Assembly: GCF_044324875.1 (NCBI RefSeq)
Contig: NZ_CP172185.1
Direction: 5' to 3' (one strand)
DNA: 64,000 nucleotides
DNA from: Escherichia coli
GTDB lineage: Bacteria > Pseudomonadota > Gammaproteobacteria > Enterobacterales > Enterobacteriaceae
The notes under the pieces were generated by a model. It ran no database searches. It saw only the letters and a list, made by a program, of their open reading frames with translations, and was not told the DNA's origin. The position numbers were made by a program, and so were the translations under genes. Positions 36,601 to 55,303 of the stretch are shown in pieces (the stretch's first letter is position 1; each line of letters begins with the position of its first letter).

Positions 36601-37147
36601 ATCCCTCCTGTCGCGAAAAATGGCCTGCGTTATTGCCAGACGTAATAAAACTTTTGATTAACGTTTCTCGTACTGGTAGCACCTTCATGTACTTTTCTTT
36701 TTTACGAAAAATCAAAAGAGCTAACAAAGGTCATAATTCGCATGAATCATTAATTATTTGTTATTTTCAACATTATTTTTACATTAAGCAGAGATGAATT
36801 GCAGTGAAATTCGACTTAACTTTTATGAAATGCATTTACTCATGGCTAAAGCCACGTCACAAAAATGCAAATTAGAAGTAGATCACAAATATCTCAATAC
36901 ATCAAATCAAGTTAATTTTAAAAATTTAATATTCATGACATTAGTTGACATAACACACTGAATTATAATGAGAATTTGAAAACACACTTTAAACAATCAT
37001 TTCCCGAAAGACATTTTGAAAATAGATCAATTGCAACATTACGGTCAGATAAAGACACTCCTGTGATATTAAACCTGTGCCGTTATGAACGGCCATAAAT
37101 ACGACGTGTGTAACTTATTTTACTCTCTGTCTTACAAAGGATTACCC

Positions 37148-37597
37148 ATGAAGAAAGCAACACTTGTGATTGGCGTTATTGGCGCGGACTGCCATGCAGT
37201 AGGCAATAAAGTTCTGGACCGCGTTTTTAGCAACCATGGCTTCAGAGTCATTAATCTGGGCGTAATGGTCAGCCAGGACGAATATATTGATGCTGCCATT
37301 GAAACTGGTGCTGACGCGATTGTCGTCTCCTCTATCTATGGGCATGGCGATATCGATTGTCTGGGCATGCGCGAACGCTGCATTGAGCGTGGGCTGGGTA
37401 ACATCCTGCTCTATGTGGGCGGTAACCTGGTGGTCGGAAAACATGACTTCGCTGACGTGGAAACCAAGTTCAAAGAGATGGGATTTGATCGCGTCTTTGC
37501 CCCAAGTCATGACTTAGAAGATGTTTGTCAGCTGATGGCCCACGATATCAACCAACGTCATGACGTTGATACTCGCATTCTTGAAGAGGCAATCTGA
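37148..37597 (+). CDS. glmS: Glutamate mutase (methylaspartate mutase) S subunit, B12-binding
   Basis: B12-binding motif (GADCHAVG) and strong resemblance to clostridial GlmS/MutS; start at the ATG at 37148 (149 aa). Confidence 0.85.
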
Positions 37598-38985
37598 TGC
37601 AAATCGTCTCTGTCGATATTGGATCGACGTGGACCAAAGCAGCCCTCTTCGCCCGGGAGGGGGACGCGTTAACGTTGGTTAACCACGTACTGACCCCAAC
37701 CACCACCCATCATCTGGCGAAGGGTTTTTTCTCCAGCCTGAACCTGGTGTTAAACGTAGATAATGCCCTCCCCCTGTTTAACAACGGTGAGGTTGCATTG
37801 AAGTATTCCTCCTCTGCCAAAGGTGGGCTGGCGGTTGCCGCAATGGGGTTGGTGCCATCTATCACCCTGGAAACCGCGAAAGTAACCGCTCACTCTGCGG
37901 GGGCTAAAATTGCGCAATATTACGCCTACAAGCTGAACCGCCGTGATATCCAGGCACTGGAAGAAACGCAGCCCGATATTCTCTTGTTCACCGGCGGCAC
38001 CGACGGCGGAGAAGAAAGCTACGGCCTGAATAACGCCCGTGTGCTGGCAGAATCCAAACTCGACTGCGCCATTATTTATGCCGGAAACCGGGATATTCAG
38101 GACGAGGTGCAGGAGATCCTAGGGCATAAAGACCTGACCATCGTCGACAACGTTCTGCCCGATCTTGACCATCCGAACCCTTTAGCTGCACGCCAGGCTA
38201 TCTGCGACATATTCCTTAAACGCATCGTTAAAGGGAAAGGGCTGGATGTCATTGTTGATAAAACAGGCGAAGAACCAATGCCGACACCATGGACGGTCTT
38301 TGAACTGGTTAAGGCAATCAGTAACGTCGATCACAGCTGGAAAGAGTTCATGCTGATCGACATGGGCGGCGCAACCACCGATGTCTATTCAGCCTGTGCC
38401 AACACGCTCTCGCCCGACACCGTTTTACACGGCGTACCGGAACCCTTCGTGAAACGGACGGTGGAAGGCGATCTGGGAATGCGCGTCTCGGCAATGGTGG
38501 TTGGTGAAAGTGCGAAAGAGTTAGTCAATGTGAATTTTGCTCAGCAACCCGCACAGCTGGACGCTTTTTATCATTACCTCCGTCATCTAGTCGCTCATCC
38601 CGACTACTTACCCGCGAATGTAGAAGAAAAATATTTCGATACCGTCCTGGCCGGACTGTGTGTGGGTTATGCCACCGAAAGACATGCGGGCACCAAAAAA
38701 GAGGTCTGCACCTGCGTCGGCAATGTCGATTTACAGATGGGACGTGACCTGACAACCGTGCGTAAAGTCGTCGGATCCGGCGGATGGCTCTCGCGTGCCA
38801 GTCAGTTCGATATGCATCACTGGTTGAAATACCGCGAGTTAAACGACGACGGTAAACGCATTCTCTTACCGACCGAATTTGAATATTACCGCGATTCCCG
38901 GGGGCTATTACCACTGCTGGCAAACGTCGCCAGAGTCGATCCGCTGGCCGCCGCGCGCACCAGTATTCAATGCTTAACCCTATAA
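37597..38985 (+). CDS. glmL: Glutamate mutase-associated protein L (MutL/GlmL)
   Basis: 462 aa; start overlaps the glmS stop (TGATG); position between S and E subunits as in clostridial operons. Confidence 0.75.
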   Translation: MQIVSVDIGSTWTKAALFAREGDALTLVNHVLTPTTTHHLAKGFFSSLNLVLNVDNALPLFNNGEVALKYSSSAKGGLAVAAMGLVPSITLETAKVTAHSAGAKIAQYYAYKLNRRDIQALEETQPDILLFTGGTDGGEESYGLNNARVLAESKLDCAIIYAGNRDIQDEVQEILGHKDLTIVDNVLPDLDHPNPLAARQAICDIFLKRIVKGKGLDVIVDKTGEEPMPTPWTVFELVKAISNVDHSWKEFMLIDMGGATTDVYSACANTLSPDTVLHGVPEPFVKRTVEGDLGMRVSAMVVGESAKELVNVNFAQQPAQLDAFYHYLRHLVAHPDYLPANVEEKYFDTVLAGLCVGYATERHAGTKKEVCTCVGNVDLQMGRDLTTVRKVVGSGGWLSRASQFDMHHWLKYRELNDDGKRILLPTEFEYYRDSRGLLPLLANVARVDPLAAARTSIQCLTL

Positions 38986-39003
38986 CAATTAAGGCTGCAA
39001 TCA

Positions 39004-40449
39004 ATGGAACTTCGAAATAAGAAATTAACCCATGACGAATTCATGACCGAGCGGCAACAGGTACTGAAAACCTGGGAAACCGGCAAGGATGTTGAAAACT
39101 TTGAAGATGGCGTTAAATACCAACAAACCATTCCTGAGCATAAACGCTTCTCTCTTGTGCTGTTGAAAGCAGACAAGGAAGGTAAAACCCTTAGCCAACC
39201 GCGCGCAGGTGTGGCGCTGATGGACGAACACATCGAACTACTGAAAACACTACAAGAAGAGTGCGATCTGCTGCCGAGCACTATCGATGCATATACCCGT
39301 CTGAATCGGTACGAAGAAGCGGCTGTAGGGATTAAAAAATCCATCGAAGCCGGAACCTCTAAACTGAACGGTTTACCGGTCGTTAACCACGGCGTCGCAG
39401 CTTGCCGTCGCCTCACCGAAACTTTGCAAAAACCGCTACAGATCCGCCACGGCACGCCAGATGCGCGTCTGCTGGCTGAAATCTCGATGTCCAGCGGCTT
39501 TACCAGTTATGAAGGCGGCGGCATTTCCTACAATATTCCGTATGCCAAGCGCGTAACGCTGGAAAAATCGATCCGCGACTGGCAGTACTGCGACCGTTTA
39601 ATGGGGATGTATGAAGAACACGGGATCCGCATCAACCGCGAACCGTTTGGCCCACTAACGGGTACGCTGATCCCGCCGTTTATCTCGCACTCTATCGCGA
39701 TAATCGAAGGCTTGCTGGCGCTGGAACAGGGTGTGAAATCTATCACCGTTGGTTATGGACAGGTCGGCAGCCTGACGCAGGATGTTGCGGCGATCCAGTC
39801 TCTGCGTGAACTTGCACACGAATATTTTCAGAGCTATGGCTATACCGACTATGAATTAAGTACCGTGTTTCACCAGTGGATGGGCGGCTTTCCGGAAGAC
39901 GAATCGAAAGCGTTCGCTATTATCTCCTGGGGCGCAGCCGTCGCGGGGATGTCTGGTGCCACCAAAGTCATCACCAAAAGTCCGCACGAAGCCTGGGGTA
40001 TCCCGACTGCCGCTGCCAACATTCAGGGGCTGAAAGCCTCCCGCCAGATGCTCAACATGGTCAACGAGCAGAAATTCCCGCCGTGCCCTGCGGTTGAACT
40101 GGAAATTGAACTGATTAAGAGCGAGGTTCGCGCGGTACTGAATAAAGTGTTCGAACTGGGTAATGGTGATATTGCGCGCGGTACGGTGCTGGCATTTGAA
40201 GCGGGCGTACTGGATGTGCCGTTTGCGCCAGCCGCCTGCAACGCGGGCAAAATTCTTCCGGTCCGTGACAACACCGGCGCGATACGCGTACTGGAAGCCG
40301 GAGCCGTTCCATTGCCAAAAGATATTCTCGACCTCCACCACGATTACGTTGCGGAACGCGCACGCTTTGAAGGACGCCAACCGACATTCCAGATGGTTGT
40401 AGATGACATCAATGCTGTATCCCACAGTAAATTAATAGGAAGACCATAA
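39004..40449 (+). CDS. glmE: Glutamate mutase (methylaspartate mutase) E subunit
   Basis: 481 aa; extended similarity to clostridial GlmE (LPSTIDAYTR, GGGISYN, TVFHQWMGGFP, FQMVVDDI). Confidence 0.88.
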   Translation: MELRNKKLTHDEFMTERQQVLKTWETGKDVENFEDGVKYQQTIPEHKRFSLVLLKADKEGKTLSQPRAGVALMDEHIELLKTLQEECDLLPSTIDAYTRLNRYEEAAVGIKKSIEAGTSKLNGLPVVNHGVAACRRLTETLQKPLQIRHGTPDARLLAEISMSSGFTSYEGGGISYNIPYAKRVTLEKSIRDWQYCDRLMGMYEEHGIRINREPFGPLTGTLIPPFISHSIAIIEGLLALEQGVKSITVGYGQVGSLTQDVAAIQSLRELAHEYFQSYGYTDYELSTVFHQWMGGFPEDESKAFAIISWGAAVAGMSGATKVITKSPHEAWGIPTAAANIQGLKASRQMLNMVNEQKFPPCPAVELEIELIKSEVRAVLNKVFELGNGDIARGTVLAFEAGVLDVPFAPAACNAGKILPVRDNTGAIRVLEAGAVPLPKDILDLHHDYVAERARFEGRQPTFQMVVDDINAVSHSKLIGRP

Positions 40450-41690
40450 TGAAAATAAAACAGGCTCTGTTCACCGCTGGCTACTCCTCATTCTATTTCG
40501 ATGACCAGCAGGCGATAAAAAACGGAGCGGGTCACGACGGTTTTTTTTATACCGGGGAGCCGGTAACACAGGGGTTTAACGCCGTTCGTCAGGCCGGGGA
40601 GTGCGTATCGGTACAGTTGATTCTGGAAAACGGCGCGGTCGCCGTAGGTGACTGTGCTGCCGTACAGTATTCCGGGGCAGGTGGTCGCGATCCACTGTTC
40701 CTCGCAGAGCACTTTATTCCGTTCCTCAACGACCATATCAAGCCATTACTGGTAGGCCGCGATGTGGATGCTTTCCTGCCGAATGCCCGTTTCTTCGACA
40801 AATTGCGTATTGACGGCAACTTGCTGCATACCGCCGTGCGCTACGGATTATCACAGGCGCTGCTTGATGCTACCGCGCTGGCAACCGGCCGTCTGAAAAC
40901 TGAAGTGGTCTGTGATGAATGGCAGTTGCCACGCGTGGCGGAATCCATTCCATTATTTGGTCAGAGCGGCGACGATCGATATATCGCCGTCGATAAGATG
41001 ATCCTTAAGGGCATCGACGTGCTGCCCCATGCGCTGATTAATAACGTCGAAGAGAAGCTGGGCTTTAAAGGTGAAAAACTGCGCGAATATGTCCGCTGGC
41101 TGTCGGATCGTATTCTGAGCAAGCGCACCAGCGCACGCTACCACCCTACCCTGCACATCGATGTATACGGCACTATCGGTCTGATCTTCGATATGGATCC
41201 GCTTCGCTGTGCGCAATACATCGCCAGCCTGGAAAAAGAAGCGCAAGGCCTGCCGCTCTACATTGAAGGGCCGGTCGATGCTGGTAACAAGCCCGATCAA
41301 ATTCGCCTGCTGACCGCGATTACCAAAGAGCTGACACGCCTCGGTTCCGGCGTGAAAATTGTGGCCGATGAATGGTGTAACACCTACCAGGATATTGTTG
41401 ATTTCACAGATGCCGCCAGTTGCCACATGGTGCAAATCAAAACCCCGGATCTGGGCAGTATTCACAACATCGTCGATGCAGTTCTTTATTGCAACAGCCA
41501 CAGCATGGAAGCGTACCAGGGCGGCACCTGCAATGAAACTGATGTCAGTGCCCGCACCTGTGTCCACGTCGCCCTTGCCGCTCGCCCCATGCGTATGCTG
41601 GTAAAACCAGGGATGGGCTTTGACGAAGGCCTCGATATCGTCTTCAACGAAATGAATCGTACTATCGCGCTGTTGCAGGCTAAGGATTAA
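40449..41690 (+). CDS. mal: 3-methylaspartate ammonia-lyase
   Basis: 413 aa, enolase-superfamily-like; start overlaps the glmE stop (TAATG); typical MAL length. Confidence 0.8.
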   Translation: MKIKQALFTAGYSSFYFDDQQAIKNGAGHDGFFYTGEPVTQGFNAVRQAGECVSVQLILENGAVAVGDCAAVQYSGAGGRDPLFLAEHFIPFLNDHIKPLLVGRDVDAFLPNARFFDKLRIDGNLLHTAVRYGLSQALLDATALATGRLKTEVVCDEWQLPRVAESIPLFGQSGDDRYIAVDKMILKGIDVLPHALINNVEEKLGFKGEKLREYVRWLSDRILSKRTSARYHPTLHIDVYGTIGLIFDMDPLRCAQYIASLEKEAQGLPLYIEGPVDAGNKPDQIRLLTAITKELTRLGSGVKIVADEWCNTYQDIVDFTDAASCHMVQIKTPDLGSIHNIVDAVLYCNSHSMEAYQGGTCNETDVSARTCVHVALAARPMRMLVKPGMGFDEGLDIVFNEMNRTIALLQAKD

Positions 41691-41693
41691 CAA

Positions 41694-43064
41694 ATGGCTC
41701 GTTCTTTTAAAGTCTTATCGCCAACGGCAATCCTCGGGTATGGATTCCCGGAAGAGAGCTTCCGTAAAGCGATGGCAGAATCGCCCGATCTGATCGCCGT
41801 TGATGCAGGCTCTTCCGATCCAGGCCCCCACTACCTCGGGGCAGGCAAACCGTTTACCGATCGCGCAGGGGTCAAGCGCGATCTGCGCTATATGATCACC
41901 GCAGGCGTGCAAAATAATATACCGGTGGTGATCGGAACGGCTGGCGGTTCTGGTGCCGCACCACACCTGGAGTGGTGCCGAGAAATAATTCATGAGATTG
42001 CCCGGGAAGAGCAACTCGCGTTCTCGATGGCGCTGATCCCGGCAGACGTTGACAAAGCCATCGTCCACCAGGCGCTGGATAACGGCAAAATCACGGCGCT
42101 GGATTTTGTCCCGCCGTTAACCCACGACGCGATTGACGAAAGTACGTATATCGTCGCGCAAATGGGCATCGAACCCTTCCAGCGGGCGCTGAAAGAAGGC
42201 GCGCAAGTGGTGCTGGGCGGGCGCGCTTACGACCCGGCCTGCTTTGCTGCGCTACCGATCATGCAAGGCTTTGATGAAGGTCTGGCGCTGCATTGTGGGA
42301 AAATCCTTGAATGCGCGGCAATCGCCGCAACGCCCGGCTCAGGCTCTGACTGTGCGATGGGCATCATTGATGACAACGGCTTTACGCTGAAGACATTTAA
42401 TCCGAAGCGTAAATTTACCGAAACGTCAGCGGCTGCACACACACTGTATGAGAAATCCGATCCCTACTTCCTGCCTGGACCTGGCGGCGTGTTGAACCTG
42501 AAAGGCTGCACATTTAAAGCGGTCAATGACGGCGAAGTGTACGTCAGCGGTTCTAAGTATGAAGAAACGCCGTATTCCCTGAAACTGGAAGGTGCGCGAC
42601 GGGTGGGCTTCCGCTGTCTGACCATCGCAGGAACGCGCGACCCGATCATGATCGCCGGGATCGATAAAATCATTGATGAAGTCAAAACCAGCGTTTCGCG
42701 TAACCTGTCGCTCGACGATGACAGTATTCACATCAATTTCCACCTGTACGGCAAAAACGGGGTGATGGGCGACCATGAACCGATGCAAACTGCCGGGCAT
42801 GAGCTGGGGATTGTCCTTGATGTAGTTGCACCGACCCAGGAAATTGCCAATAGCGTTTGCTCGCTGGTGCGCTCTACCATGCTGCACTACGGCTATGAAA
42901 ACCGCATCGCTACCGCAGGTAATCTGGCGTTCCCGTTCTCCCCTTCTGATATCCAGGGCGGGCCGGTATACGAATTTTCCATATATCACCTGATTGAAGC
43001 CAACGACGCTCTGCGTTTTGATTTCCATATTGAACAGGTGACGCCAGAAGGAGTTCAGGCATGA
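41694..43064 (+). CDS. Conserved protein of unknown function, resembling the DUF1446 (AtuA-like) family
   Basis: 456-aa ORF starting 4 nt after the mal stop; family assignment from memory, not searched. Confidence 0.6.
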   Translation: MARSFKVLSPTAILGYGFPEESFRKAMAESPDLIAVDAGSSDPGPHYLGAGKPFTDRAGVKRDLRYMITAGVQNNIPVVIGTAGGSGAAPHLEWCREIIHEIAREEQLAFSMALIPADVDKAIVHQALDNGKITALDFVPPLTHDAIDESTYIVAQMGIEPFQRALKEGAQVVLGGRAYDPACFAALPIMQGFDEGLALHCGKILECAAIAATPGSGSDCAMGIIDDNGFTLKTFNPKRKFTETSAAAHTLYEKSDPYFLPGPGGVLNLKGCTFKAVNDGEVYVSGSKYEETPYSLKLEGARRVGFRCLTIAGTRDPIMIAGIDKIIDEVKTSVSRNLSLDDDSIHINFHLYGKNGVMGDHEPMQTAGHELGIVLDVVAPTQEIANSVCSLVRSTMLHYGYENRIATAGNLAFPFSPSDIQGGPVYEFSIYHLIEANDALRFDFHIEQVTPEGVQA

Positions 43065-43378
43065 AACAGTCAATTGTCTCACTGGCGCAAGTCATTCGTT
43101 CGAAAAATGCCGGACCTTACGAACTGGTTTTAGATATTTTATTTAAAACCAAAGAAAACTATGAGCGAGTTAAATCATCAGGGCAATTAACCCCAGAACT
43201 GATTGCGCGCTTATATCATGTTGAACCTGACTTTATTCATCGTATTGTCTGGTTTGATCCTTCTAACGCAGTAAAAATCGTCATGCCACGAGATATTATC
43301 TCCGGGAATGTAGGTGACAATGATGTCTATGGTGCACAGCAACATGCACCTTTATTAAATATGAGTTTCGATTTGTAA
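43061..43378 (+). CDS. Small conserved protein of unknown function (105 aa), likely the DUF4387-type partner
   Basis: ATGA overlap with the preceding gene; size and pairing typical of DUF1446/DUF4387 gene pairs as I recall them. Confidence 0.55.
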   Translation: MKQSIVSLAQVIRSKNAGPYELVLDILFKTKENYERVKSSGQLTPELIARLYHVEPDFIHRIVWFDPSNAVKIVMPRDIISGNVGDNDVYGAQQHAPLLNMSFDL

Positions 43379-43461
43379 AAATCCGAATACTTTTAGCCAA
43401 CTGACATCCCGTCACTTATTGCAGTTCAACACTTCAGCTATTTGTAAGGTTGTAATAGCAG

Positions 43462-43493
43462 GTAGATGCCTGAATCTCTATTCAGACATCTAC
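43462..43493 (+). terminator. Strong hairpin (gtagatg-ctgaat…attcag-catctac) with partial U-tract, between the DUF pair and the transporter
   Basis: 13-bp stem with one mismatch followed by ttctcctgattctgattt; seen directly. Confidence 0.45.
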
Positions 43494-43538
43494 TTCTCCT
43501 GATTCTGATTTATCGCCGTGCACCTGATGGAGGAAAAA

Positions 43539-44819
43539 ATGAAGAAAATAAGTTTAACCACGATGATTCTTTTGGCACTGGTACTTGGAATGATTATCGG
43601 CGTAGTGCTCAATAACACTGCTTCACCGGAAACCGCAAAACTCTATGCGCAAGAAATATCGATATTCACGACGATTTTCTTACGACTGATAAAAATGATT
43701 ATCGCTCCGTTAGTGGTCTCTACCCTGGTGGTAGGTATAGCTAAAATGGGCGATGCCAAAGCCCTTGGTCGTATTTTTTCTAAAACACTCTTTTTATTTA
43801 TTTGCGCCTCATTGCTGTCAATTGCCTTAGGCTTGATAACAGTAAATTTCTTCATGCCAGGCACAGGAATTAATTTTGTTGCACACGGAGCCGAAACCAC
43901 CGGAGTGGTCGCGTCAGAACCCTTTACGCTAAAAGTATTTATTTCGCATGCTTTCCCCACCAGCATTGTCGATGCCATGGCGCACAATGAAATTTTGCAA
44001 ATCGTAGTGTTCTCAATTTTCCTCGGCTGTAGCCTGACGGCGATTGGCGAGAAAGGCAGCGCCATCGTTCACGCCTTAGATTCGCTGGCACATGCCATGT
44101 TAAAGCTCACTGGCTACGTCATGCTCTTCGCTCCCCTGACCGTATTCGCCGCTATTTCAGCATTGATTGCTGAACGAGGACTGGCAGTTATGGTGAGCGC
44201 CGGGATCTTTATGGGTGAATTTTATTTCACCATGTTGTTACTTTGGGTGCTGCTTATCGGTCTGGCCATCGTTTATGTCGGCCCCTGCATCAGACGCCTG
44301 ACCCGCGCCCTTTCGGAACCCGCTCTGCTGGCATTTACCACATCCAGTTCTGAAGCGGCTTTTCCGGGAACGCTTGAAAAACTGGAGCAATTTGGCGTTT
44401 CCCCCAAAATTGCCAGCTTTGTCTTACCCATTGGCTACTCATTTAATCTCGTTGGATCAATGGCCTACTGCTCCTTCGCCACAGTTTTCATCGCCCAGGC
44501 CTGCAATATCCATTTATCCATCGGTGAGCAAATCACCATGCTGTTGATCCTGATGTTGACCTCGAAAGGAATGGCTGGCGTACCACGCGCCTCAATGGTG
44601 GTTATCGCCGCCACGCTCAACCAGTTCAATATTCCGGAAGCGGGGCTGATCTTGCTGATGGGCGTTGATCCGTTCCTTGATATGGGGCGTTCCGCGACAA
44701 ACGTCATGAGCAACGCAATGGGCGCTGCGATGGTGAGTCGGTGGGAAGGCGAACATTTCGGCGAGGGTTGTCGGGGTAAAGCATTAAAACCCAATGAATC
44801 GAACGTTGCTCTGCCCTGA
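43539..44819 (+). CDS. Dicarboxylate/amino-acid:cation symporter (GltP/DctA-like)
   Basis: Polytopic membrane protein with DAACS-like motifs; GGAGG RBS before the ATG at 43539 (426 aa). Confidence 0.8.
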   Translation: MKKISLTTMILLALVLGMIIGVVLNNTASPETAKLYAQEISIFTTIFLRLIKMIIAPLVVSTLVVGIAKMGDAKALGRIFSKTLFLFICASLLSIALGLITVNFFMPGTGINFVAHGAETTGVVASEPFTLKVFISHAFPTSIVDAMAHNEILQIVVFSIFLGCSLTAIGEKGSAIVHALDSLAHAMLKLTGYVMLFAPLTVFAAISALIAERGLAVMVSAGIFMGEFYFTMLLLWVLLIGLAIVYVGPCIRRLTRALSEPALLAFTTSSSEAAFPGTLEKLEQFGVSPKIASFVLPIGYSFNLVGSMAYCSFATVFIAQACNIHLSIGEQITMLLILMLTSKGMAGVPRASMVVIAATLNQFNIPEAGLILLMGVDPFLDMGRSATNVMSNAMGAAMVSRWEGEHFGEGCRGKALKPNESNVALP

Positions 44820-44926
44820 GGGGGATCTTAAGCAATCAGAAGCCAATGACTACGCATTTTTATAAGCCGGATCATGAAGTTAGACGGCAATTAAGTAACA
44901 CTAACGTTTAAGGTGAAAAGTGAAAT

Positions 44927-46579
44927 ATGTCCAAACCATTTATCTGGCAAGAACCGTTTCTACAAAATAAAGACGGTACAGAATATACATTAATTAGCGA
45001 TCAACATATTACAGTAACGGAATTAGACGGCGAAGAAGTGATAAAAATCGCTCCTGAAGCATTAACGCTGCTTGCCCGGCAGGCATTTTATGAAGCCTCT
45101 TTTTTCTTACGTTCCGCTCATTTGCAACAGGTCGCCAGCATTCTTAACGATCCGCAGGCCAGTAGTAATGATAAATACGTTGCGTTGCAGTTATTACGTA
45201 ATGCTGAAGTCTCAGCAAAAGGGGTATTACCCAACTGTCAGGATACCGGCACCGCAACTATTGTTGCCAGTAAAGGGCAACAGATATGGACGGGAGGTAA
45301 CGACGCTGAAGCCTTAAGCAAAGGCATTTACAGTACTTTCCAGGAAAATAATCTGCGCTTTTCACAAAATGCGCCGCTGGATATGTATACCGAAGTCAAT
45401 ACGCAAACCAATCTCCCGGCGCAGATTGATATCAGCGCTGTCGCTGGTAATGAGTACCATTTTCTCTGTGTTAATAAAGGGGGCGGCTCCGCCAATAAAG
45501 CCGCACTTTATCAGGAAACCAAATCCTTATTGCAACCAGAAAAACTGACCGCATTTTTAATCGAAAAAATGAAATCGCTGGGCACCGCTGCCTGCCCGCC
45601 TTACCACATCGCCTTTGTCGTCGGAGGGCTTTCAGCCGATCAAACCTTAAAAGTTGCCAAGCTGGCCTCTACGAAATATTACGACAATTTGCCCACCAGC
45701 GGAAACGAGCAGGGACAAGCATTCCGTGATATTGAGCTGGAAAAAGTGTTGCTCGAGGTCAGTCAGCAATTTGGTATTGGTGCGCAATTTGGGGGTAAAT
45801 ATTTCGCTCATGATATTCGCGTCATTCGTCTGCCGCGTCACGGTGGCTCTTGCCCGATAGCTATGACGCTCTCCTGTTCTGCCGATCGCAATATCAAAGC
45901 AAAAATTAACAAGCACGGTATCTGGCTGGAAAAACTCGAACACAATCCGGGGCAATATATTCCAGCCTCACTGCGGGAAGAAAATCACGCGCAACATGTA
46001 CAACTGGATCTAAACCGTCCGTTGCGTGACGTGATGCAGGATCTCGCCAGATTACCGGTAGGCACCCGCGTGTCGTTAAGTGGTCCCATCGTAGTGGCAC
46101 GCGATATCGCCCACGCCAAAATAAAAGCGCGGCTGGATAACGCCGAACCGATGCCGGATTACCTGAAGCATCATATTGTCTATTACGCTGGCCCGGCGAA
46201 AACACCGGAGAACATGGCCTGCGGTTCACTGGGTCCAACCACGGGCGGTCGAATGGACGGTTATGTCGATACCTTCCAGGCGGCTGGCGGCAGTCTGGTG
46301 ATGTTATCGAAAGGTAACCGCAGCCAGCAGGTCACCGATGCCTGTCACAAACATGGTGGCTTCAATCTGGGTAGTATTGGCGGTGCAGCTGCGTTACTGG
46401 CGCAAGAATATGTCAAAAGTCTGCGTTGCCTGGAATACCCGGAGCTGGGTATGGAAGCGGTGTGGATGATGGAAGTGGAAAATCTGCCCGCATTCATCCT
46501 GGTAGATGATAAAGGCAATAATTTCTTTAGTCAGTTTGAGCAGCAACACCGCTGCGCCAGTTGCCCTGCGGGACATTAA
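44927..46579 (+). CDS. fumD: Class I (Fe-S) fumarate hydratase paralogue; FumD-type mesaconase/fumarase
   Basis: 550 aa, alignable by eye with FumA along the whole length; clustering with glutamate mutase and methylaspartase matches published FumD. Confidence 0.8.
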
Positions 46580-46588
46580 GGAAAATGA

Positions 46589-47191
46589 ATGGAAGCGCGA
46601 ATTTCAACTGAACGGCATGTGCAGCGCCAGCAGAAATTGAAGGAACAGGTCGATACGCGCATCGCGGCGGCGATAGAGAAAAAAGGGATTTTGATTGTTT
46701 TCACCGGCAATGGCAAAGGGAAATCCACTGCCGCGTTTGGTACTGTGACGCGCGCGGTGGGTCATGGCAAAACGGTGGGGGTTGCGCAGTACATCAAGGG
46801 GCAATGGGACAACGGCGAATACAACCTTCTCCAGCCGCTGGGGGTTGAGTTTCATATTATGGGAACCGGTTTTACCTGGGAGACACAGAACCGGCAAGCG
46901 GATATCGACGCGGCGAAAGAGGTCTGGTCGGAAAGCAAACGGATGCTGGCTGACAAGCGTTACGACTTAGTGGTGCTTGATGAGCTGACCTATATGCTGG
47001 CTTACCATTATCTGGATACCGAAGAAGTGATCGCTTCTCTGCAAAACCGCCCGGCACAACAAAGTGTCATTGTCACCGGACGCGGTTGCCACAGTCAGAT
47101 ATTAAAAATGGCGGATACGGTCAGCGAAATCCGCCCCGTCAAACATGCTTTTGATAACGGCATTCAGGCCCAGCCGGGTATCGACTGGTAA
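46589..47191 (+). CDS. Cob(I)alamin/cob(I)yrinic acid a,c-diamide adenosyltransferase paralogue (BtuR/CobO-like)
   Basis: 200 aa; P-loop (GNGKGKSTAAFG) and close resemblance to E. coli BtuR. Confidence 0.85.
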   Translation: MEARISTERHVQRQQKLKEQVDTRIAAAIEKKGILIVFTGNGKGKSTAAFGTVTRAVGHGKTVGVAQYIKGQWDNGEYNLLQPLGVEFHIMGTGFTWETQNRQADIDAAKEVWSESKRMLADKRYDLVVLDELTYMLAYHYLDTEEVIASLQNRPAQQSVIVTGRGCHSQILKMADTVSEIRPVKHAFDNGIQAQPGIDW

Positions 47192-47194
47192 TAA

Positions 47195-47221
47195 CTGCGC
47201 CTGGCATCCCGCCAGGCGCAG
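47195..47221. terminator. Bidirectional hairpin (ctgcgcctggc…gccaggcgcag) between convergent cobO-like and LysR genes
   Basis: 11-bp perfect stem followed by gtttta; seen directly. Confidence 0.6.
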
Positions 47222-47224
47222 GTT

Positions 47225-48130
47225 TTACATCTCCTGCGGTACAACCGATTTCGCCAGCAACCATTCACGAAATTGCTGCAAGTGCGGTGAGTCAGACTTC
47301 TCTTCCTGCCACGTCATAATAAAACGATTACCGGTACGAATAGGCACATCACAGGGGATCACCATATCGCCACTATCCAAATCATGTTGAATAGCGAAAC
47401 GTGGTAACAGCGCCACGCCGAGATTAGAGCGCACGGCGGCAATCAGCATTGAAAGCAAATCGAAACGTGGTCCGTTGTTGACCAGCGGACTGCTAACGCC
47501 AGATAAGGCAAACCACTCTTCCCAGCCAGTAATACGGGTACTTTGATGCAGAAGTGGTAACTCTGTAAGCAGTTCTGCCACTGACAGTTTTTGATCGGAC
47601 ATTGCAAGCAAACTGCCGCTGCATACCGGCAAAATCTCCTCATCAAAGAGATATTCTACTTCCGCCCAGGGCGCGCAAAAATTTTCGCGCATAATGACAG
47701 CATCGTACTCCCGATTAAGAAAATCGCCGTTATTAGCTAAAGAGTGAATATTAACAATAATATCGGGATGTAACTTTGTGAATTCATGTAAATTTGGGAT
47801 TAACCAGTGGGTACTAAACGTAGGATTCACGGCAAGTTCAATAACCTGAACCGTAGGCTGCCAGGTCATAATGGTATTGGTATCGCGTTCCAGCTTATTT
47901 AATGTTTCTTTTACTATCCCCAGGTAATACTTCCCTGCATCATTAAGAAAAATACGTTTTTTAGAGTGTGAAAATAACGGAGTATGTAAAAATTCCTCCA
48001 GCGCACTCACTTGTCTGAATACTGCACTTTGGGTCAACGCTAACTCCTCTGCCGCTTTGGTATAACTTTCATGACGTGCGACGACCTCAAAAGTCACCAG
48101 CAGCTCCGTTTTAGGTATTTTTCCTCGCAT
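47225..48130 (-). CDS. LysR-family transcriptional regulator
   Basis: 301 aa; N-terminal HTH (YTKAAEELALTQSAVFRQVSALEE). Confidence 0.85.
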   Translation of the reverse strand: MRGKIPKTELLVTFEVVARHESYTKAAEELALTQSAVFRQVSALEEFLHTPLFSHSKKRIFLNDAGKYYLGIVKETLNKLERDTNTIMTWQPTVQVIELAVNPTFSTHWLIPNLHEFTKLHPDIIVNIHSLANNGDFLNREYDAVIMRENFCAPWAEVEYLFDEEILPVCSGSLLAMSDQKLSVAELLTELPLLHQSTRITGWEEWFALSGVSSPLVNNGPRFDLLSMLIAAVRSNLGVALLPRFAIQHDLDSGDMVIPCDVPIRTGNRFIMTWQEEKSDSPHLQQFREWLLAKSVVPQEM

Positions 48131-48169
48131 AATGCCGTCCCTTAAAAATAGTTTAAACCATCAAAAATA

Positions 48170-48191
48170 CATTACTTATTACGAAGTAATG
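48170..48191. promoter_or_regulatory. Perfect 22-bp palindrome CATTACTTATTACGAAGTAATG upstream of the LysR gene
   Basis: 8-bp inverted arms around a 6-bp spacer, 40-60 bp upstream of the start codon. Confidence 0.45.
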
Positions 48192-48693
48192 GTAACCAAA
48201 GCAGCAATAAATAATTTATAAGAATCATGATTGACATTTATAACCCAGTAAGCCTGGCGTGACAAATATCTTAATCAGATAATAATAATCCGAAAAGCAC
48301 AGCGCCTTTCGAATTATCCGGAATCACATTAAGTGAAAATTATTAAATTGATATCATTTATCATATCTGTGGATATTATGATAAACAATCAACAAAGATT
48401 TTATTTTTGATTTATAGCATATCCCTCTAAGAATTTTTGCGATGCTGCAATATCCGGGGTAAAGACCCGATCCTGGCTGACAAATGGCACGACTTGACGA
48501 TAAGCGGTGAACATCGCTTTTGTTGATTTACTTAACGCTACGGTCAAACGCTGGGAAGCCAGTGCATCAGGTAACGATTCGAAATTCGCCGTCGTTCTTA
48601 TTCGTGGCTTGCGGTCGGTTGCGGCAATCCACAGTGGCTGTGGTCATGCAGTCAAGCCAGCGGTCAGATTTCGACCGTGGTTAACATTTAAGG

Positions 48694-48720
48694 CATAAAA
48701 AAGGCCATCATACGATGGCC
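48694..48720 (-). terminator. Rho-independent terminator after sucD (ggccatc…gatggcc plus U-run)
   Basis: Hairpin then TTTTTTTAT on the minus strand. Confidence 0.7.
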
Positions 48721-48795
48721 AACCATGTCGAAACCGACAACCCTTCGCCATTCCTGTAGAGGGAAGCGGCGAGGGCTATTTCTTATTACAGATAT
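48694..48795 (-). ncRNA. sdhX: sucD 3' UTR, the region from which the SdhX (RybD) sRNA derives in E. coli
   Basis: Position only (between the sucD stop and its terminator); I could not verify the sRNA sequence from memory. Confidence 0.35.
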
Positions 48796-49665
48796 TTATT
48801 TCAGAACAGTTTTCAGTGCTTCACCGATATCCGCCAGGCTGCGAACGGTTTTCACGCCTGCGGCTTCCAGAGCAGCGAATTTCTCATCCGCAGTCCCTTT
48901 ACCACCGGCAATGATGGCACCCGCGTGGCCCATACGTTTGCCTTTCGGCGCAGTCACACCAGCGATGTAACCCACAACAGGCTTGGTAACGTGCTCTTTG
49001 ATGTACGCAGCCGCTTCTTCTTCAGCGCTACCGCCGATCTCACCGATCATCACGATCGCTTCGGTCTGCGGATCTTTTTCGAACATTTCGAGAATGTCGA
49101 TAAAGTTAGAGCCAGGGATCGGATCGCCGCCGATACCAACACAGGTCGACTGACCGAAACCGTAATCCGTGGTCTGTTTAACCGCTTCATAGGTCAGTGT
49201 ACCGGAACGGGAAACGATACCCACTTTACCCGGTTTGTGAATGTGACCCGGCTGGATACCGATTTTGCATTCACCCGGAGTGATAACGCCTGGGCAGTTC
49301 GGGCCGATCATACGAACGCCAGCTTCGTCCAGTTTCACTTTCACAGTCAGCATATCCAGCGTCGGGATGCCTTCAGTGATGGTGATAATCAGTTTGATGC
49401 CTGCATCGATGGCTTCCAGAATGGAGTCTTTGCAGAACGGTGCTGGTACGTAGATAACAGAAGCGGTAGCGCCAGTAGCAGCAACAGCTTCACGCACGGT
49501 GTTGAACACCGGCAGGCCGAGGTGGGTGGTGCCGCCTTTACCTGGGGTTACGCCGCCAACCATTTTAGTGCCGTATGCAATGGCCTGTTCTGAGTGGAAA
49601 GTCCCCTGGCTACCGGTAAAGCCCTGGCAGATAACCTTGGTGTTTTTATCAATTAAAATGGACAT
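48796..49665 (-). CDS. sucD: Succinyl-CoA synthetase alpha subunit
   Basis: 289 aa; synteny. Confidence 0.95.
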
Positions 49666-55120: not shown

Positions 55121-55303
55121 CTGCATTTCTTTTGTAGGCCGGATAAGGCATTCACGCCACATCCGGCGCTGTTTGCCTGATGCGACGCTTGCGCGTCTTA
55201 TCAGGCCTACGATTTCTGCATTTCTTTTGTAGGCCGGATAAGGCGTTCACGCCGCATCCGGCACTGGTTGCCTGATGCGACGCTTGTGCGTCTTATCAGG
55301 CCT
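55121..55303. repeat. Tandem duplication (period about 95 bp) of a REP/BIME unit in the sdhB-sucA intergenic region
   Basis: Two near-identical units starting ctgcatttcttttgtaggccggataaggc… at 55121 and 55216. Confidence 0.8.

Follow-up and report, generated by a model that had tools for sequence, protein, structure and literature searches.

The window analysed here is a stretch of 64,000 nucleotides of Escherichia coli DNA (NZ_CP172185.1, assembly GCF_044324875.1). It carries the methylaspartate (glutamate-fermentation) gene cluster, an island flanked by cyd and suc genes that roughly one in five complete E. coli genomes carries. Open reading frames, read together with the RefSeq annotation of the identical O157:H7 region, define an upstream module on the + strand (37148–43378) that consists of glmS, glmL, glmE, the methylaspartate ammonia-lyase gene, an AtuA-family gene and a DUF4387 gene (43061–43378). 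The genes of this module overlap or lie at most 18 nt apart. An untranslated intercistronic gap on the + strand follows (43379–43538), in which no sigma-70-like promoter was called and no Rfam match was found; its length is 160 nt, as a first-pass annotation of the sequence had it. Beyond the gap, the same sources define a downstream module, also on the + strand (43539–47191). It comprises a DAACS (GltP-like) transporter gene (43539–44819), annotated in RefSeq as a dicarboxylate/amino-acid:cation symporter, fumD (44927–46579), annotated as a class I fumarate hydratase, and cobO (46589–47191). A gene for a LysR-family regulator (47225–48130) is convergent with cobO. The first-pass annotation had described this gene context correctly, and had been right to see a hairpin in the 160-nt gap as the divider of two expression modules.

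A strong + strand hairpin followed by GTTTTACATC lies at the end of the operon (47195–47221). It was called by the terminator scan and folds at −28.1 kcal/mol (z −6.25). This hairpin is probably the operon terminator, acting bidirectionally and shared by cobO and the convergent LysR-family gene, and it served as our reference for what a terminator-like site looks like. Apart from the 160-nt gap, the operon has one sizeable gap, between the transporter gene and fumD (44820–44926); when folded, it gave no structure (z +1.22). At the other end of the cluster, perfect TTGACA and TATAAT hexamers only 13 nt apart (36945–36969) sit in an AT-rich region of ∼550 nt 5′ of glmS, where an operon promoter was not obvious.

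A 640-nt query around the gap hairpin was 99.7% identical to E. coli DSM 103246 and matched 1,124 of the 5,426 complete E. coli genomes, O157:H7 among them. FumD (ECs0757) was characterized, and the cluster described as one of ‘glutamate fermentation’, by Kronen and Berg (PMC4682846). These authors found no condition in which the cluster genes were expressed, so that the cluster was silent in the laboratory conditions tested, and their paper does not mention the hairpin. Literature searches by the locus tags ECs0750–0757 and by enterobacterial glutamate mutase retrieved no account of how the cluster is transcribed. Among the starts listed in the Cappable-seq tables for strain EDL933 (PMC10469882), none lies in the cluster in the sense direction; those at 844418, 845113, 847581 and 848411 of NZ_CP008957.1 are antisense starts inside fumD and the AtuA-family gene (PMC10469882). 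For the gap itself, none of the starts listed there falls within 8465xx–8467xx, which is weak evidence as the operon was probably silent.

Within the gap, an inverted repeat pairs positions 43462–43475 (GTAGATGCCTGAAT) with 43480–43493 (ATTCAGACATCTAC), giving a stem of 14 positions closed by the loop CTCT (43476–43479). A 13-bp stem with one mismatch had been reported at 43462–43493, and inspection confirmed it at exactly this place: the core contains 13 Watson–Crick pairs and a single C43469·A43486 mismatch. The stem is lengthened by a G43461·U43494 and an A43460–U43495 pair, so that the 5′ arm extends over 43460–43475 and the 3′ arm over 43480–43495, both on the + strand. Column for column, the 5′ arm aligns with its counterpart in nine genera, and the 3′ arm was placed from both fold and alignment. 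The loop is conserved in neither length nor sequence (4–11 nt in relatives). The sequence 5′ of the stem is AU-rich.

Folded as RNA, a 51-nt segment containing the hairpin reached −17.1 kcal/mol (z = −3.84), a stability equalled by none of 200 shuffles; the folding-energy calculation proposed as a check in the first-pass annotation therefore came out in favour of the hairpin. The hairpin is present in both the minimum-energy and the centroid folds of the whole 162-nt gap segment, although the overall structure of the E. coli gap is unremarkable (z −1.49). Inverted repeats with 14-nt arms, at most one mismatch and a loop of 3–10 nt were counted in the window; there are three, as compared with a mean of 0.1 in dinucleotide shuffles. 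The window also contains 41 + strand hairpins of −17 kcal/mol or below, so the mismatched allele is unexceptional by energy alone. The E. coli consensus allele (−24.3 kcal/mol) would place among the top four hairpins of the window.

The ribosome-binding site of the transporter gene, GGAGG (43529–43533), lies 35 nt after the last base of the core stem (43493) and precedes the ATG at 43539, the start annotated in O157:H7. This initiation region (43529–43541, + strand) lies outside the hairpin, and a GATGGAG block at the ribosome-binding site is kept in all relatives. The first-pass annotation had placed the hairpin just upstream of the ribosome-binding site; the spacing of 35 nt means that the site is not occluded.

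The mismatch at 43486 is a peculiarity of the strain. A43486 is private to it, being absent from about 1,123 other E. coli genomes, where the position is G, and this single C·A mismatch costs ∼7 kcal/mol. The 81 nt around the hairpin in the window had an exact match in none of the 1,124 E. coli records (0 at a level of 99% or more), while the O157:H7 version, with G at 43486, was matched exactly by 610. With G43486 all 16 bp of the stem are formed, and the hairpin folds at −24.3 kcal/mol (z −5.73). The helix is also preserved in all three other sampled E. coli alleles: in AR_0006 and SCU-482 an A–U pair has become G·U, by a change in the 5′ arm in one and in the 3′ arm in the other, and in strain 64A:C a G–C pair has become G·U and the loop is enlarged. 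In E. coli strain 100416 (NZ_CM128593.1; L065:1–273) an IS1 element lies within the 5′ arm and the stem is lost.

Species-representative genomes were scanned with the AtuA-family protein, which yielded 61 loci. The gene order DUF4387–gap–transporter is kept across the Enterobacterales loci, and a stable hairpin was found 3′ of the DUF4387 gene in all of them (51/51; best fold −12.9 to −40 kcal/mol). Outside the Enterobacterales the gaps of the clusters are short and the genes are ordered differently, so that these clusters are not comparable. A hairpin at the same position as that of E. coli is present in nine genera (Escherichia, Citrobacter, Klebsiella, Salmonella, Enterobacter, Lelliottia, Buttiauxella, Pluralibacter and Raoultella), the orthologous hairpins folding at −17 to −40 kcal/mol with stems, where examined, of 10–16 bp. 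It starts 64–85 nt past the DUF4387 stop codon in all loci but one; the exception is Klebsiella oxytoca L052, in which an insertion moves the start to 280 nt past the stop. The distance from the end of the stem to the start codon of the transporter gene is likewise conserved, at 40–48 nt.

Two of the loci, Citrobacter amalonaticus S646 (L045:7686–7967) and K. oxytoca NBRC 105695 (L052:7686–8049), carry additional imperfect-palindrome insertions of ∼115–195 nt in the gap, of ERIC-like appearance. In L045 the insertion is 3′ of the hairpin, which has itself been remodelled and scores only 19 bits against the model. Contigs from two metagenome-assembled genomes, ‘Collinsella sp.’ (L003) and ‘Citrobacter sp.’ (L002), are 98–100% identical to the E. 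coli cluster and are probably mis-binned E. coli DNA.

The stem arms of the orthologous hairpins fall in register in a plain MAFFT alignment, and covariation was assessed in a set of 35 distinct sequences from the nine genera. In this set 93.2% of cells were paired, as compared with 21–48% when the 3′ partner was slid by 1–3 columns, and both-sided changes were present at 12 of the 16 pairs. The covariation score was 0.428 against 0.247 in shuffles, and 0 of 500 shuffles reached the observed value. RNAalifold recovered the same helix independently. Between E. coli and the Citrobacter group there are double substitutions at five consecutive pairs; over the same comparison the four-fold sites of the flanking genes are saturated (0.36–0.44 identity) and the gap outside the stem is no more alike than these sites. 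Pairing has thus been kept despite saturated neutral divergence, which indicates that the stem has been maintained by selection through a complete turnover of its sequence. At the level of comparative sequence analysis, these data establish that the hairpin is under selection as an RNA structure and is kept by compensatory change.

The form of the substitutions also points to the strand that is read. The alignment contains 72 G·U cells as against 13 A·C cells, and in 31 of 36 sequences the + strand gave the more stable fold. Both biases are those of an RNA in the sense transcript, and would be unexpected for a site in duplex DNA or for an antisense RNA. A covariance model built on the hairpin (R1) identified a single copy at each locus, together with its palindromic echo; this search covered 795 kb, made up of the window and the loci, and returned no further copy. 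In E. coli genomes the hairpin had a median of one place per genome. No match at E ≤ 1 was obtained when positions 35000–49000 of the window were scanned against Rfam 15, and a scan of the orthologous gap at five other loci, in other genera, was also without a match. A repeat of the REP, BIME or ERIC type was rejected, as there is one copy per genome or locus. A conserved upstream open reading frame beginning at the invariant ATG of CATGCGG was rejected as well: the differences in loop length are not multiples of three, and the codon is ATA in one species. The evidence for a conserved RNA stem-loop in the gap is good; the element is present in single copy and had not been annotated before.

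The sequence that follows the stem was described in the first-pass annotation as pyrimidine- and U-rich. It is indeed pyrimidine-rich, but the description as U-rich did not hold: in the tail UUCUCCUGA there are 4 U in 9 nt, and 43462–43493 was not called by the terminator scan. The corresponding tails in Citrobacter, Klebsiella, Salmonella and Enterobacter (CACCCTACA) contain 1–2 U, and the Citrobacter hairpin site was not called either. Because the U-tract is absent in these genera, the conserved feature is the stem and not an intrinsic-terminator signal. The earlier suggestion of a partial terminator is weakened, its U-tract basis being weak in E. coli and missing in orthologues that keep the stem. 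What does accompany the stem is a pyrimidine-rich spacer without a U-tract (43496–43528, + strand, in E. coli), C-rich and G-poor in relatives and less so in E. coli. Across the 35 loci the ∼30 nt after the stem contain on average 13 C and 1.8 G; in the E. coli window the bias of this spacer is weaker, with 10 C and 6 G.

More distant Enterobacterales have other hairpins at this junction. Yersinia, Hafnia, Morganella, Pseudescherichia and their relatives have a different hairpin 10–41 nt past the DUF4387 stop codon, and Budvicia has a different one 111 nt past it; the covariance model matched none of the post-stop hairpins of the more distant genera. In Yersinia alsatica the hairpin after DUF4387 is a textbook terminator with T6. 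Two members of the genus Escherichia, E. whittamii (L032:7686–7975) and Escherichia sp. E1V33 (L046:7686–7953), are without the transporter gene; here DUF4387 is followed after 270–290 nt by fumD, and a different, AT-rich hairpin lies 25 nt past the stop. A hairpin after DUF4387 persists also where the transporter start is 100–250 nt away. As a hairpin is present whatever gene comes next, its constant association is with the end of the upstream module. In the window, a terminator-like hairpin, GGTGCACAGCAACATGCACC followed by TTTATTAAAT, was also seen within the 3′-terminal 50 nt of the DUF4387 reading frame (43331–43350), and its GGTGCA...TGCACC element makes post-stop hairpins in Yersinia, Hafnia and Budvicia.

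Some orthologous gaps hold more than the main hairpin. In Citrobacter, Klebsiella, Salmonella and Enterobacter (L016:7686–7853 and its orthologues) a second hairpin, P1, lies ∼25 nt past the DUF4387 stop and has double changes at 5 of its 9 pairs (alignment A3, columns 27–35 with 55–63). The gaps of these genera also share the block ATTCATGCGGTTGGTCAC, which is invariant and includes a GGTTGGT able to base-pair with ACCARCC ∼70 nt downstream (columns 75–81 with 151–157). This pairing would enclose the main hairpin; no double-sided change was seen in the enclosing helix. Across the Citrobacter group the whole gap is conserved above the level of synonymous sites (0.65–0.85 as compared with 0.41–0.69).

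A promoter within the gap was sought in two ways. Promoter scans were run on the E. coli, Citrobacter and Yersinia gaps without yielding a candidate on the + strand, and a search by eye of the conserved block for sigma-70 and sigma-54 elements revealed no acceptable spacing. With no promoter-like site and no listed start in the gap, the downstream genes are probably expressed by read-through. Protected 3′ ends within operons of E. coli are known to be marked by hairpins free of a U-tract: of 34 gene pairs with a stabilized upstream gene, 26 had such a hairpin (PMC5927463). The hairpins of that study, for which malE–malF is the paradigm, are often conserved in Salmonella and Enterobacter (Dar & Sorek, 2018; PMC5927463).

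The explanation we favour, and to which we give about an even chance of being right, is that the stem defines and protects the 3′ end of the upstream message, from glmS to DUF4387, as a 3′-end hairpin of the malE–malF or Rho-dependent type. One long polycistronic message running from glmS to cobO would contain the stem-loop in its sense strand. RNA polymerase would pass through the hairpin, there being no U-tract for release, and the transcript would then be terminated by Rho or cut by an endonuclease in the untranslated spacer 3′ of the stem, which would make 43496–43528 a possible place for Rho to load or for an endonuclease to cut. Exonucleases working 3′ to 5′ would trim the new end back and stall at the stem, leaving a stable upstream message. 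The transporter, FumD and CobO would be expressed only from molecules that had been read through and remained uncut, and the net outcome would be that the enzyme module and the transporter/FumD/CobO module are expressed in a set proportion. The co-transcription of the modules, the 3′ end and the protection from decay are all features that we infer. The first-pass annotation had also offered an RNA processing site, and a processing or stability site that sets the module ratio suits the anatomy better than a terminator. Against a protective hairpin, the gap-wide conservation of the Citrobacter group, P1 and the invariant single-stranded blocks exceed what a simple barrier to exonucleases needs, the excess of C over G in the spacer is smaller in E. 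coli itself, and the conserved distance from the stem to the transporter start leaves room for a role in the 5′ region of the downstream message.

The reading of the hairpin as a weak intrinsic (Rho-independent) terminator or attenuator, at which partial release at the stem and its UUCUCCU tail sets the read-through into transporter, fumD and cobO, seems unlikely to us. The long stable stem and the 4 U that follow it in E. coli are what such a signal would look like, and the canonical stem and T6 of Y. alsatica indicate that termination at this junction does occur in the wider family. The Yersinia hairpin, however, is another element at another position that the covariance model does not match. 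The E. coli site went uncalled in the terminator scan, and 30-odd orthologues that keep the stem have only 1–2 U, so the U-tract is not the selected feature. We consider it equally improbable that the transporter gene has a larger structured 5′ leader, with the hairpin as one of its helices, that senses a metabolite, protein or small RNA and controls translation or transcript elongation of the downstream module. The conservation of the gap above four-fold sites in Citrobacter, Klebsiella, Salmonella and Enterobacter, the covariation of P1 at five of nine pairs, the potential of ATTCATGCGGTTGGTCAC to pair with ACCARCC around the main hairpin and the constant distance from stem to start codon are all consistent with a leader of this kind. 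It is difficult to reconcile with the lack of an Rfam match, with the absence of double-sided change in the enclosing helix, with the variable loop and with a ribosome-binding site that pairs with nothing conserved. Moreover, in E. coli and Escherichia sp. MOD1-EC7003 the stem is retained but most of the supposed core is not, a clear P1 or P2 is missing, and the E. coli gap as a whole shows no unusual degree of structure (z −1.49). A narrower form of this idea, in which the transporter gene of Citrobacter, Klebsiella, Salmonella and Enterobacter has a previously undescribed leader of ∼165 nt with the hairpin as its best-conserved helix and a reduced version in E. coli, is in our estimation decidedly unlikely. 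Such a leader would combine two covarying hairpins, an enclosing helix and invariant single-stranded blocks, and would be more tightly constrained than synonymous sites. If it were true, the leader would sense a pathway metabolite or bind a dedicated protein and gate the uptake/hydratase/adenosyltransferase module.

The stem might instead cap the transporter–fumD–cobO message at its 5′ end, after an RNase E cut 5′ of the stem or an RNase III cut within it. The AU-rich region 5′ of the stem would suit the former, and the perfect 16-bp stem, as double-stranded RNA, the latter. RNase III substrates have about two helical turns (about 20 bp or more), so that 16 bp is short, and the stems examined, at 10–16 bp, are shorter than classical substrates. 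In addition, a hairpin stays after DUF4387 where the transporter is absent or 100–250 nt off, and we regard a 5′ stabilizer or processing site as having little chance of being correct. Far less probable is that the palindrome acts as DNA, as the operator of a dimeric regulator such as the adjacent LysR-family protein. The palindrome is near-perfect, the regulator gene is close by (47225–48130) and the inner CCTGA/TCAGG positions are highly conserved. The spacing of the half-sites varies, though, from N8 in E. coli to N14 in Citrobacter; in Escherichia sp. MOD1-EC7003 one half-site has been lost and is now loop; and the outer arm sequences have been replaced wholesale with pairing kept. The 72 to 13 excess of G·T over A·C is strand-specific and so meaningless for duplex DNA, and there is no promoter nearby. 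A functionless palindrome, arising by chance or neutrally, is the least credible reading of all. It could draw on the modest −17.1 kcal/mol of the window allele and on the 41 equally stable + strand hairpins, but it is contradicted by the three repeats observed against 0.1 in shuffles and by compensatory changes in nine genera at saturating neutral divergence.

The gap hairpin can be compared with several known systems. Like malE–malF and the other hairpins of Dar and Sorek (PMC5927463), the methylaspartate-cluster element is a stable hairpin without a U-tract between co-directional operon segments, and it is conserved in related enterobacteria. As in malEFG, the bulk enzymes are encoded by the upstream segment, and a membrane transporter is the product of the gene that comes first after the hairpin. 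The malE–malF element is a multi-copy REP sequence, whereas the methylaspartate hairpin is single-copy. Most of the Dar and Sorek structures lie inside the downstream coding region; the present hairpin lies in a 160-nt untranslated gap. It resembles the hairpins at Rho-dependent 3′ ends in having a terminator-like energy, reduced U, no upstream A-tract and an excess of C over G in what follows. Rho-associated sites end transcription units, however, and this hairpin is inside an apparent operon, so termination there would have to be partial.

With intrinsic terminators the element shares a stable, G+C-containing stem-loop directly 3′ of a gene; it differs from them in its U-tract, for which about 5 U or more would be expected in the 8 nt directly after the stem, and which is weak in E. 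coli and absent from most relatives that conserve the stem. With REP/BIME and ERIC elements it shares an intergenic imperfect palindrome that forms an RNA hairpin within an operon; its sequence differs from that of the REP-type hairpins at 55171–55267 of the window. Other parts of the window, at 55171–55267 and 2740–2779, contain typical hairpins of the REP/BIME type and a palindrome resembling ERIC, which served as a contrast to the single-copy hairpin. By analogy, the element is best classed with the protective or Rho-associated 3′-end hairpins that lack a U-tract and lie within operons.

The one long gap between the modules of this operon thus holds an RNA structure under selection, and this structure may offer a mutable handle on the balance between the enzyme module and the uptake/cofactor module. 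The cluster is found also in many opportunistic enterobacteria, and the conserved non-coding blocks of the Citrobacter group are candidates for a part in its regulation. In E. coli and its relatives, the hairpin would be a further example of a common bacterial way of tuning gene ratios within operons.
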